From positions 1 through 38,370 of IMG/VR virus record IMGVR_UViG_2645727901_000003: 38,370 nt of DNA, one strand, 5' to 3'. The DNA comes from a virus (Duplodnaviria; Heunggongvirae; Uroviricota; Caudoviricetes). The notes beneath the pieces were generated by a model, which was given only the letters and a program-made list of their open reading frames with translations, searched no databases and was not told where the DNA came from. Below are positions 5,490 to 8,347 of the stretch, in pieces. Position 1 is the first letter of the stretch. Every line of letters starts with the position of its first letter. The translations under genes and the position numbers were made by a program.

Positions 5490-6119
5490 TTAAACCATGG
5501 TCTGTTCAGCGTTAAATTTCTCAAGATAGACTTCCATTTCGCGAGTCCACCTAGGGGTAGGTACCGAGGTGATCATTAGCCAAGGAAACCACCATACAAG
5601 CATGAAGAGTAACATAAGCGGTGCGATCATTTCGGCCGAAGAATGAGAAACTATATACATAATGAATAAGATTAGTAGAACTGTGTTTACAATCTGACCT
5701 ACCAGAAAAAGACGCCAGCGAAAACAATGCCATTTCCTGTTGAACACAATCCGTCCATCCCGTTCTTCGAGCCAGTTACGCCACGGCTTGAGATAACCAG
5801 CCCGCAACCCATAACGATCACACATTATTACAGCCAAATCCTGCAGCCGATAATTATACAAGCCTGTGAGCCGATAAAGGCTGCGCTGACGAAGCTCACG
5901 CTTTGCCAGACGGACCGCATTTTTATTCAAATATGGCTGTGTCAGCATTTGCTCTAGCCGGCGCTTCCTAAGATTGAGTAGTCCACGAAATACACTTCCA
6001 GATTCAGCATTAATTACTCTGTGACGAACTACACCGAGTGCAATATAGATACACAGCAATAGCCAGCCGGTCTTAGGGTATTGATTCATCCATTGTATAA
6101 TTACAGACAACTCAGGCAC
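5490..6119 (-). CDS. Hypothetical membrane protein (cargo)
   Basis: 209 aa; hydrophobic N-terminal segment and two C-terminal TM-like segments flanking a basic soluble region; AT-rich; GTG start with AAAGGA Shine-Dalgarno (alternative ATG at 6089). Confidence 0.45.
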   Translation of the reverse strand: MPELSVIIQWMNQYPKTGWLLLCIYIALGVVRHRVINAESGSVFRGLLNLRKRRLEQMLTQPYLNKNAVRLAKRELRQRSLYRLTGLYNYRLQDLAVIMCDRYGLRAGYLKPWRNWLEERDGRIVFNRKWHCFRWRLFLVGQIVNTVLLILFIMYIVSHSSAEMIAPLMLLFMLVWWFPWLMITSVPTPRWTREMEVYLEKFNAEQTMV

Positions 6120-6173
6120 TTTTATTTTTCCTTTTTATGCAATCCAGATAAAACCAGTAAAGATTCAGTAAAT

Positions 6174-6186
6174 TTTAGCGGCTAAA
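6174..6186. promoter_or_regulatory. KorB operator (OB)-like palindrome TTTAGCGGCTAAA
   Basis: Exact OB consensus about 55 bp upstream of the membrane-protein gene start. Confidence 0.6.
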
Positions 6187-6242
6187 ATTGCTCTCCTGGC
6201 GTAGATAAAAGAAGTATATCCACTTAAATCACTGATTATTAA

Positions 6243-7433
6243 CTACTTACTAGTCCATTCATCAATCATATTCGCCCAATCTTGTAGCATCTCGGCCCTC
6301 TGCTCACGATATTCAGCCTTGTTATAAACAGCTCGTACCCCCTTTTGTTCATGGGCAAGGCACTTCTCAATCCAGTCAGTATTGTACCCGGCCTCATGTA
6401 GCAAGGTGCTGGCAGTACGCCGTAAGTCATGGGGACCAAACTTAGGTAACAAGTCCCCTTCTTTCTGAGCCAGACGATACGTCAGTGTCAAAACCCGGTT
6501 TAAAGTAGCGCTACTCATTGGCGCATCGGAATCGTACCGCGAAGGAAGGATAAAATCAGAGCTACCGGCAAAGGTTTTGAGAGCAATCATAATATCCATT
6601 GCCTGTCTGGAAAGAAAAACCAAATGTGGATTACGTCGTTTCATCCTCTCCTTTGGTATCGTCCATAATGCCTCACTAAAATTGATCTCGTTCCAGGTTG
6701 CGTTAGTAAGCTCACTTTTACGTACCATCGTTAACAGCAAAAGTTTAACCGCTGCTCTGATTGATGGCGTCGTTCCTACCCGTTCCATGTACCGATACAT
6801 CAGACCAATTTCAACTGGCGTCAATGCCCTGTCACGAGGCTCAAATTTCGCTATGCTTGCAGGCCGTACCAGATCAGCGGGATTCTCAACCTTCTGACCG
6901 CGCTCAATAGCCCAGCGATAGACTTGCAATACAATCTCTCTGGCGTGCACAGCTGTCGCCGGTGCCCCTCTCTCGACAATGTTATCGGTTAATGCGCGTA
7001 AGTCTTCATGTGTAATCTCGGTCAATTTCTGCTGCGCAAATTTTGACTTCAACTCCCTTTGATATACCGAACGCCGCATATCACGCGTCGATTCAGCCAT
7101 TTGATAACCGCGTAACCATTTCTCAGCCCATGCACCAAAAGTCTCCGCATCTTTGATACGAGCTTTATCTCTAGCTTTTTCCCTCGCTGGCGATCTTCCA
7201 CTGGCAACCATTTTTTTAGCTTCATGGAGCCGTTCACGCGCTTCTGCAAGCGTGATCCCTCCAACACCATAGCGGCCAAAAGTAACGGTCTCCTGTCTTC
7301 CGTTTATTGAATAGTTATAACGAAATGAAATAGTTCCAGCCGGAGTGACCGCAACATACAGACCATCACGGTCATTAACTTTATAGAGTTTCTCCTTCGG
7401 CTTAAGGTGACGCAGCCTGGTGTCAGTCAACAT
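6243..7433 (-). CDS. int: Tyrosine site-specific integrase (P4-type phage integrase family)
   Basis: 396 aa; N-terminal arm-binding-type domain (LYKVNDRDGLYVAVTPAGTISFRY), catalytic box HDLRRTASTLL and LAHEQKGVRAVYNKAEY. Confidence 0.85.
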   Translation of the reverse strand: MLTDTRLRHLKPKEKLYKVNDRDGLYVAVTPAGTISFRYNYSINGRQETVTFGRYGVGGITLAEARERLHEAKKMVASGRSPAREKARDKARIKDAETFGAWAEKWLRGYQMAESTRDMRRSVYQRELKSKFAQQKLTEITHEDLRALTDNIVERGAPATAVHAREIVLQVYRWAIERGQKVENPADLVRPASIAKFEPRDRALTPVEIGLMYRYMERVGTTPSIRAAVKLLLLTMVRKSELTNATWNEINFSEALWTIPKERMKRRNPHLVFLSRQAMDIMIALKTFAGSSDFILPSRYDSDAPMSSATLNRVLTLTYRLAQKEGDLLPKFGPHDLRRTASTLLHEAGYNTDWIEKCLAHEQKGVRAVYNKAEYREQRAEMLQDWANMIDEWTSK

Positions 7434-7553
7434 GTTTTATTGTTTTCCTTTATCAAAAATACCATGTTGTAAAAAATTCAGAAAACTTGTTTAACTCTCT
7501 GTTTTTAATTGAGTTATAAAAAATAAATACCATAACTCAACCGAAATTTATCA

Positions 7554-7863
7554 CATGGTACTTTTTCAAACCTGAATTCGAAACCAGAGAGTACCATCAA
7601 AAATTCCATTGAAAAAACCGTGCTTCCCGTTGCTAACAGCTGCCAGAAAGTGCCAGATACAAAAACAAAAAAGCCCGCAGTTACGCGGGCTTAGAGGTAC
7701 TTTACTGCTTTTACGTGCAGGCTGTTGCCAGACGTTAAATCATTCCCACTCAATTATTTACGGACAACATAAGTAATTGACTGACAACAACTTTTAAAGA
7801 AACAAAATTTCCAATACCGTTTTATATACCGTCGCCGGAAATCAGTACCATGAAAAATGCCAT
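7554..7863. repeat. GTACCAT-containing direct and inverted repeats (candidate integrase arm sites / att region)
   Basis: AGTACCATCAAAAATTCCAT (7590..7609) vs AGTACCATGAAAAATGCCAT (7844..7863), 17/20 identical; inverted copy CATGGTACTTTTT (7554..7566). Confidence 0.4.
7663..7695 (-). terminator. Intrinsic terminator closing the prophage lysis operon
   Basis: GCCCGC-AGTTAC-GCGGGC hairpin followed on the minus strand by UUUUUUGUUUUUG. Confidence 0.7.
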
Positions 7864-7864
7864 G

Positions 7865-8347
7865 TCACCTGGTCAGCGAATCGTACTGCTTTTCACAGAC
7901 TCTTCCTGCTTCGGCTGCCCGATCAGCGTACTCTGCCAGTTGTCGGTTTCGCTCGAGAGATTTGCTGAGCAAGTCGGCAAGCAAAACACCGGTGTCTGCG
8001 GCTGACGGCCCAGCGCCGACAATGGCGTTATACTGCCTGAGCTGCTCACGGATGGCAACGAGCTGTTGCTGCAACCTGCCAGCGCGAGCGGCAGCATCAA
8101 GAGCATCATTGCGCGCCTGGTCGATCCTCTGCTGCGCTTTACGTTCATTGATTGCTTTCTCCTGTTCGTCGTGCTGACGAGCTTTATCATCTTCGGTTTT
8201 ACGGTCTGTCTTTGCCTGCGCATACCCGGCGTCATACTGTCGGCTGCCATGAACATTCCAGGCAACAACGCCGACGATCACCAGAGCAGCAAGCATCGCC
8301 ACGATAAGCAACTGTTTCCAGTACGCTTTCATGAATGCTCTGATCAT
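7865..8347 (-). CDS. Rz-like i-spanin
   Basis: 160 aa; N-terminal TM anchor then charged coiled-coil region; ATGA overlap with endolysin stop. Confidence 0.65.
   Translation of the reverse strand: MIRAFMKAYWKQLLIVAMLAALVIVGVVAWNVHGSRQYDAGYAQAKTDRKTEDDKARQHDEQEKAINERKAQQRIDQARNDALDAAARAGRLQQQLVAIREQLRQYNAIVGAGPSAADTGVLLADLLSKSLERNRQLAEYADRAAEAGRVCEKQYDSLTR
7873..8109 (-). CDS. Rz1-like o-spanin lipoprotein embedded in Rz (+1 frame)
   Basis: Internal start giving MMLLMLPLALAGC lipobox; 78 aa. Confidence 0.5.
   Translation of the reverse strand: MMLLMLPLALAGCSNSSLPSVSSSGSITPLSALGRQPQTPVFCLPTCSANLSSETDNWQSTLIGQPKQEESVKSSTIR

Follow-up and report, generated by a model that had tools for sequence, protein, structure and literature searches.

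The spacer studied here (7434-7864, 431 nt) lies between a tyrosine integrase gene (int) and a spanin gene in a 38,370-nt stretch of viral DNA, positions 1 to 38,370 of IMG/VR record IMGVR_UViG_2645727901_000003, which is called the window throughout. Our analysis indicates, with a probability of about 80%, that this spacer is a composite attachment junction, at which a GIsul2-like island and an epsilon15-like prophage stand in tandem at the same 18-bp guaA core, and that its TACCAT-type repeats are arm-type integrase sites. The repeats by themselves are most likely docking (arm-type) sites of site-specific integrases, as judged from their sequence and placement. A sequence-only reading of the window had expected arm sites and an att core here, by implication within one prophage; it is partly supported, being right on the arm sites and the core and wrong on one prophage owning them.

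Two elements at one guaA core

The att core AAATCATTCCCACTCAAT, which lies between the repeats as had been anticipated, is the reverse complement of the last guaA codons, and its 18 nt are identical to the attB of E. coli K-12, that is, to the empty guaA 3' end. The reverse complement of the core contains ATTGAGTGGGAATGATT, with an exact match at 7738-7754, as well as GAGTGGGA. The former 17-mer is the attP/attB core of ZX5, phiV10 and epsilon15; in ZX5 it has been tested by polymerase chain reaction and sequencing of the att junctions, and the phiV10 and epsilon15 cores are cited as established (PMC9782041). The latter is the core of GIsul2 and is supported by assays in which excision and integration of GIsul2 were shown (PMC9376610). 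The guaA target and its core are already known for both element families. A tRNA scan of the window found none, so this is not a tRNA-linked att site, and the Rfam search placed no RNA family in the spacer, its matches elsewhere being traJ-II, C4 and isrK.

Seventeen complete E. coli genomes have a phage-free int-guaA spacer with 99% identity or more to 7400-7754, and the match ends at 7754. One of these 17 junctions, that of E. coli M8, was examined in detail, and the far junction of its island reads yfgI-core-P' arm. Homology to epsilon15, SPN1S and phiV10 begins at 7736-7740 and continues rightward through the lysis and structural genes. Since the integrase is GIsul2-like, 7400-7754 equals the phage-free int-guaA spacer and the prophage starts at the core, the two direct 20-mer repeats of the spacer belong to different elements, and the earlier picture of an integrase beside its own lysis genes in one prophage does not hold.

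The junction of E. coli VE-V11-M is 91% identical to that of the window. Its whole array reads guaB-guaA, then the prophage (int, early genes, terminase, structural genes, holins, endolysin, DUF2514) and then the island (int, further genes, repA, traJ, trbJ, trbL), with the prophage int at the far end of the prophage, next to guaA and separate from the island int. Junctions of the core with guaA and with an element have thus been found in relatives, namely M8, the 17 genomes and the VE-V11-M array, and in the window the arms and int are not those of a single element, the left arm and int being of island type and the right arm of Uetakevirus type. As the VE-V11-M array has the prophage int next to guaA and phage homology continues to the window end, the phage int and the guaA-proximal core should lie beyond 38,370. 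A plasmid DNA search with 6000-9500 gave matches to lysis genes only and was uninformative on the att region.

The left element is, as judged from its GIsul2-family int at the guaA core and its repA/trbJ/trbL-type backbone, a GIsul2/PIME-type integrative mobilizable element (IME). Its integrase is 87.3% identical to the GIsul2 Int on plasmid R485 and 52% identical to epsilon15 Int, the island and epsilon15 integrases both falling in the epsilon15 cluster of the P4-like/IntSXT integrases (PMC8138268). The left open reading frames (ORFs) are colinear in order and size with a ~25-kb island of E. coli M8 and its VE-V11-M relative, which carry int, a hypothetical gene, LuxR-family, helix-turn-helix (HTH), RepA helicase, traJ/nikA-like, trbJ and trbL genes; the left part of the window shows AAA_25 RepA-like and NikA-like ORFs and an Rfam traJ-II RNA, and no phage early genes. 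With GIsul2 and the other guaA-integrating IMEs (PIMEs, BcenGI2, CMGI-3-type) the element shares the integrase, the GAGTGGGA core at guaA, the backbone of repA, traJ/nikA-like and trbJ/trbL genes, an identical arrangement of P-arm sites and the TACCAT-N6-TACCAT pair on the attR side, whereas the window shows none of the sul2/ISCR2/ars cargo of GIsul2 and the island adjoins a prophage instead of guaA. Excision and mobilisation of PIMEs by a helper conjugative plasmid have been shown in the literature, for elements other than the present one.

The prophage side also resembles its relatives closely. The lysis-proximal (P') arm of the prophage occupies 7755-7864, right of the core. The prophage shares with the epsilon15/phiV10-type phages the 17-18-bp core, and over 7736-7864 its identity to the lysis-proximal arm of these phages is 87-93%; this stretch includes the ATACCGTCAC sites, which carry an integrase-binding-site annotation in the epsilon15 GenBank record (annotation only). 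The spanin gene, the last of a Uetakevirus-like lysis cassette, has 87-93% DNA identity to epsilon15, SPN1S and phiV10; beyond it lie endolysin and holin genes, and the window is Uetakevirus-like through its right end. On the other hand, these phages have a P arm of 193 nt with TACCGT and a different terminator, whereas the left half here is of island type and the adjacent integrase is only 52% identical.

Several IMG/VR contigs labelled viral show the same hybrid (L086-L094, L100 and L113; L numbers are our labels for compared loci), one end of each being formed by the island integrase together with the island P arm. Prophage calling evidently does not stop at the hybrid junction, so that part of the island is merged with the Uetakevirus prophage.

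Probable arm-type repeats on both sides of the core

The direct 20-mers of the earlier reading are present in the window, and their identity is 18/20, with two differing positions, rather than the 17/20 given there; the inverted copy CATGGTACTTTTT is likewise real and equals AAAAAGTACCATG on the other strand. The terminator hairpin, which that reading implies to be their outer boundary, separates the two 20-mers. Further copies were identified as ATACCATG (7459-7466), ATACCAT (7527-7533) and ATACCGT (at 7814 and 7826). Shuffling 7434-7864 400 times with dinucleotides preserved gave a direct 20-mer match of 17 at best, reached once, and never 18. GTACCAT occurs five times on both strands of the whole window, three of these copies being inside the spacer (Poisson P ~2e-6); for [AG]TACC[AG]T the count is 7 of 23 occurrences (P ~1e-9), and all four occurrences of AAAANTNCCAT fall there.

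The island P arm (7434-7736, left of the core, its length given as 307 nt) holds five such sites, named A to E from the core towards int. In nearly all of the loci with this integrase in Alpha-, Beta- and Gammaproteobacteria, about 90 in number, the GAGTGGGA core was found 316-320 nt upstream of int, counted from its start, and at 76 loci a guaA-like long ORF ends in the core. When 90 distinct island P arms, down to 47% identical to the window, were aligned, the conserved blocks were the core, the terminator hairpin and the motif copies. The mean information content is 1.79 in motif columns and 0.79 in the remaining columns of the arm (Mann-Whitney P = 1.7e-14), and the three best-conserved 7-mers of the arm (7460-7466, 7527-7533 and 7554-7560) are sites E, D and C. 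The alignment-free count agrees: 90/90 arms have a direct T[AG]CCAT at a distance of 24-27 nt from the int start, 89/90 have one at 92-95 nt, 89/90 have an inverted ATGG[CT]A at 120-123 nt, and most have one or two direct sites at 156-175 nt. These 90 arms have 5.5 sites each on average as compared to 0.35 in shuffles. The family consensus is [AG]T[AG]CCATG, that of site A being ATGCCATG. Position and sequence of the motif are therefore held in diverged relatives whose flanking sequence has drifted. A second inverted site, ATGGCA, is seen 136-143 nt from the int start, ~13 nt past site C, in 74/90 arms (for example L094, L095, L059 and L126); it is absent from the clade of the window.

The motif is also found on the far side of the core. 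At the far end of the M8 island the yfgI-core is followed by ~70 AT-rich nt and then by ATACCATTAAAAATACCAT, which places TACCAT-N6-TACCAT at +74/+86. This P' pair is at the same positions in five further E. coli islands that differ in cargo, despite diverged intervening sequence; in GIsul2, TACCATGAAAAATACCATG is found equally far from the attR core, and the pair of L099 reads TACCATG-N5-TGCCATG. The matching pair of the present island (TACCAT-N6-TACCAT, +74/+86) is predicted at the island far end, outside the window; the window itself holds P' pairs on the phage side. A motif that recurs on each arm with constant spacing to the core is a hallmark of arm-type sites and not of a promoter operator. 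The expectation of integrase arm sites in this spacer is thereby strengthened, as the places of the repeats are those at which relatives have motif copies, conserved in position, on either arm; the repeats are present in related elements and the att junction maps between them, which is the reverse of what the earlier reading had named as grounds for giving it up.

The sister class of phage integrases has the same layout with a different motif. The true Uetakevirus attP reads lysis-P' arm-core-P arm (193 nt)-int, and in epsilon15, phiV10, SPN1S and BUCT711 it carries inverted ACGGTA at -165, TACCGT/TACCGN at -136/-124, a terminator, the core and TACCGT-N6-TACCGT at +74/+86. The TACCGT/TACCGN pair, 57/69 nt from the int start, is homologous to the island pair B-A, and the inverted ACGGTA is at the place equivalent to site C; TACCGTCA stands in place of TACCATG. 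The layout is the same in 16 further phage-class arms and in L111. In L101, with an Int 60% identical and a GC-rich host, the complete set known from the islands (two direct sites, one inverted site, a tandem pair, the terminator, the core and a P' pair) is present, with TACCGTCA throughout as the motif. A scan of viral contigs with epsilon15 Int returned only integrases 86-100% identical to the query, mostly cut at the prophage boundary; within that range the positions were confirmed and no further motif classes were found.

The island integrase has Arm-DNA-bind_3 (PF13356, residues 2-88, E = 2.5e-19), Phage_int_M and Phage_integrase domains, and its N-terminal 100 aa match the solved arm-type binding domains 3JU0 (E = 4e-13) and 3JTZ (E = 7e-12). 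A separate arm-DNA-binding domain, as found in heterobivalent recombinases, is thus present in the cognate enzyme. In this domain (window 7293-7346, minus strand) integrases of the TACCATG class have T30/A32/N40/S42/Q47 whereas those of the TACCGTCA class have L30/S32/D40/R42/R47, which is suggestive of residues 30, 32, 40, 42 and 47 as candidate specificity determinants.

The pair of the phage-type motif at 7814 is the inner pair of the prophage P' arm and is invariant in 10 distinct Uetakevirus P' arms. An outer pair of the island-type motif, which forms the second 20-mer, stands 31 nt beyond it and is 18/19 identical to the GIsul2 attR-side pair TACCATGAAAAATACCATG. It is present in epsilon15, phiV10, SPN1S, L163 and L198, and is invariant also in VE-V11-M, L086, L091 and L093.

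Table. Coordinates and properties of the features in and around the spacer
Feature	Positions	Strand or orientation	Remarks
Tyrosine integrase gene, 396 aa, GIsul2/PIME-like island	6243-7433	-	Pfam; identity to GIsul2 Int
Putative site E, ATACCATG	7459-7466	+	26 nt from int start codon; top-conserved 7-mer of the arm, information content 2.0
Putative site D, ATACCAT	7527-7533	+	94 nt from int start; information content 1.97
Putative site C, GTACCATG on minus strand	7554-7561	-	Inverted copy of the earlier reading; information content 1.97
Inverted copy CATGGTACTTTTT	7554-7566		Reads AAAAAGTACCATG on the opposite strand
First 20-mer AGTACCATCAAAAATTCCAT	7590-7609	direct	Window sequence
Putative tandem pair B-A, GTACCAT-N5-TTCCAT	7591-7609	+	12-nt spacing; lies in first 20-mer; conserved blocks in family alignment
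TGCCAGA direct repeats, second family in island arm	7641-7647, 7651-7657, 7726-7732	+	Two within 7641-7657, third beside the core
Intrinsic terminator of island arm	7662-7692 (hairpin 7671-7692)	-	Terminator scan
att core AAATCATTCCCACTCAAT	7737-7754		Last guaA codons, I-E-W-E-stop at 7740-7754, minus strand
Inner P' pair, ATACCGT-N5-ATACCGTC	7814-7833	+	Phage-type motif; +74/+86 from the core
Second 20-mer AGTACCATGAAAAATGCCAT	7844-7863	direct	Window sequence
Outer P' pair, GTACCATG-N4-ATGCCATG	7845-7864	+	Island-type motif; +105/+117; abuts spanin stop codon
Rz-like spanin gene (DUF2514), last gene of the lysis cassette	7865-8347	-	Pfam DUF2514, 1.8e-47

Proposed mechanism and competing explanations

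The TACCAT-type repeats are predicted to be arm-type sites for the N-terminal domain of heterobivalent, P4-like tyrosine integrases. Int would bind the arm sites through about residues 1-90 and the core through its central and catalytic domains, and may bridge arms and core while the AT-rich spacers are bent, forming an intasome for integration as well as excision. In the island arm five sites would take part, i.e. direct E and D, inverted C and the tandem pair B-A; the phage would use the same architecture with TACCGTCA and its own P' pair at 7814-7833. On integration the island arm would restore the last guaA codons and supply the terminator at 7662-7692. Each element keeps one arm here and the other at its far end, so each should still be able to excise alone: the island would do so through the hybrid junction and its far junction, the phage through the hybrid junction and the guaA-side junction, and neither would be trapped.

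Arm-type integrase sites are a textbook feature. In lambda attP the arm-type sites P1, P2 and P'1-P'3 are bound by the N-terminal domain of Int, and the present junction resembles it in the heterobivalent integrase, the non-core motif on both arms and in both orientations, the tandem P' pair and the AT-rich, bendable spacer. On the other hand, the integrase belongs to another subfamily, the motif, its spacing and the number of sites differ, and a terminator is embedded in the P arm.

In case of KplE1 IntS the integrase promoter overlaps attL and the gene is subject to negative autoregulation (PMC2951348). By analogy, sites D and E, less than 100 nt from the int start, may allow Int to repress its own promoter. 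Here too transcription of int runs away from the core, the int promoter has to be within the arm, and the putative arm-type sites nearest to int are 26 and 94 nt from its start, whereas no minus-strand promoter was predicted: a sigma-70 scan of 7380-7920 gave none on the int strand and one weak plus-strand match at chance level. Autoregulation is consequently put forward only as a possibility, by likeness to IntS. The motif read as ATGGTAT was also considered as an extended -10 element and rejected as a general explanation, the downstream bases being unconserved (GIsul2 has ATGGTATCGG) and the motif occurring also on the distant P' arm.

Certain results weigh against the arm-site and tandem-junction interpretation. 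In the literature searched, no binding, footprinting or mutational results were found for these sites, and no description of arm sites of GIsul2/PIME integrases either, the word 'arm' being absent from the GIsul2 and PIME papers. Site A of the window, TTCCAT, is a weak version of the family consensus ATGCCAT. A scan of the spacer for the IHF consensus (WATCARNNNNTTR and relaxed forms) gave no match, which is a further difference from lambda. The covariation of motif and residues comes from essentially two clades and, being a single evolutionary contrast, is no more than suggestive. Both elements have their far ends outside the window, and the tandem order is inferred from the junction and VE-V11-M. 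Moreover, the outer pair is absent from the P' arms of BUCT711, L100, L144 and L206, so that phage integration cannot depend on it.

Short A-rich repeats are common in DNA like the 65% A+T spacer, and the repeats could in principle be chance similarity; that view is already refuted and can practically be dismissed, given that no shuffle reached 18/20, that the enrichments have P values of 1e-6 to 1e-9 and that positions are held in 89-90 of 90 diverged arms. A single prophage with an intact attP/attL, whose own integrase would be the product of 6243-7433 and whose arm sites would be both 20-mers, has in its favour that the lysis-att-int order on one strand mimics the true epsilon15 attP region and that both integrases fall in the same guaA-targeting cluster (PMC8138268). 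It is nevertheless highly improbable and already refuted by the data above: the integrase goes with GIsul2 (87%) and not with epsilon15 (52%), the 17 phage-free E. coli island junctions match 7400-7754, the left genes are repA, traJ/nikA-like and trbJ and not phage early genes, phage homology ends at the core, VE-V11-M has a distinct phage integrase beside guaA, and a genuine P arm of these phages has 193 nt and TACCGT sites, as compared to 307 nt and TACCAT sites here. It is also unlikely that the TACCATG copies bind another protein, either an AlpA/Xis-type recombination directionality factor (RDF) or a repressor of the int promoter, in place of the arm-binding domain of the integrase. GIsul2-type islands do encode an AlpA-family or small HTH protein beside int, sites D and E are in the int promoter/leader region, and RDF sites too are short repeats in att arms. 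Binding by the integrase agrees better with the motif on both arms, including a P' arm which, once the element is integrated, is over 15-25 kb away from int, at a fixed +74/+86; with five to seven copies in both orientations, the classical arm-site pattern, whereas RDF sites are usually clustered on one arm; and with a motif variant that tracks the integrase class and the class-specific residues of the arm-binding domain. The separate TGCCAGA family, with three copies, is moreover available as an RDF candidate.

The second 20-mer requires a separate consideration: the outer pair may be accessory to the sites of the phage Int, may serve an island-type Int or may be a relic. There is a sizeable chance, though somewhat below even, that it is a non-functional hitchhiker, a remnant of recombination between island-type and phage-type arms which travels with the epsilon15-type spanin end, its likeness to the island pair being due to ancestry. 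Its absence from four P' arms that are otherwise intact agrees with this, as do its location at +105/+117 instead of the canonical +74/+86 and a direct repeat: in comparison with BUCT711 the outer pair falls within ~31 nt flanked on both sides by TCACCGG, an arrangement suggestive of a mosaic boundary. Three observations speak against a hitchhiker: the pair is invariant in epsilon15, phiV10, VE-V11-M, L086, L091 and L093, among which the 60-nt core-proximal spacer varies; L092 keeps both outer heptamers and perfects them to TACCATG though its spacer and downstream gene differ; and the 31-nt offset from the inner pair is ~three helical turns. It is unlikely that the outer pair (18/19 equal to the GIsul2 P' pair, in a phage with TACCGTCA sites of its own) is a functional dock for an island-type integrase, in which case the island Int would have a full attP-like site in the hybrid junction. 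If this were so, two unrelated residents of the same attB would be in cross-talk, with joint excision, interference with prophage induction or preferential integration of islands beside a resident Uetakevirus as possible consequences. The presence or absence of the outer pair is also seen to be in step with the type of spanin gene end (L092, L100, L144, L206, L123).

If the repeats are arm-type integrase sites, as we prefer, the study adds a site map for a family of integrases by which sul2 and other cargo are carried across the Alpha-, Beta- and Gammaproteobacteria, where scanning one genome per species gave this integrase at 87-99% identity. The map consists of five P-arm sites, a P' pair at +74/+86 and an embedded replacement terminator for guaA, and it is accompanied by a natural specificity contrast with the related phage integrase, i.e. 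TACCATG against TACCGTCA and N40/S42/Q47 against D40/R42/R47. For arm-type sites, guaA and integrase taken together, only a general survey was found in the literature (PMC8138268). These outcomes can be used in delimiting islands and tandem arrays, as IMG/VR 'viral' contigs include the island integrase, in the design of minimal att substrates and in tests of arm-site specificity. The general understanding of site-specific recombination is unchanged, and the biology is ordinary and well understood.

Terminators and neighbouring features

The terminator hairpin of the island arm is kept across the family with compensatory changes (GCCCGC/GCGGGC, GTCCGC/GCGGAC and GCCCAT/ATGGGC). As judged from its placement, it terminates guaA transcription if the island is the only element at guaA, and in the window the lysis operon of the prophage stops at it. 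The terminator of the Uetakevirus P arm, AAAAACCC[C/T]CTGTAAAAACAGAGGGTT, closely resembles the native guaA terminator of K-12 (P arms of L003/L004; L005, 3905-3935). Taken together, the two terminators show that both element types replace the one which they displace.

The TGCCAGA repeats account for 3 of 11 window occurrences (P ~1e-4) and are partly conserved in the family. They may be the site of an AlpA/HTH-type directionality factor, or a core-proximal site.

Towards the left end of the window the traJ-II RNA (Rfam, 83.5 bits) at 1365-1463 on the minus strand overlaps both the 5' part of the NikA-like/TraJ ORF 990-1430 of the island and the sequence immediately upstream of this ORF. Integrases 88-89% identical to that of the window were also found in metagenome-assembled genomes labelled Nitrospira (L059) and Bacteroidota (L070), outside Pseudomonadota; contamination in binning is more likely here than a true host range. 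In the prophage, isrK (12916-12990) and C4 antisense RNA (13015-13100) are adjacent Rfam matches on the plus strand, just upstream of ORF 13140-13838, and VE-V11-M has a BRO-N antirepressor-like gene at the equivalent place. This region looks like an antirepressor control module of the P1/P7 immI type.

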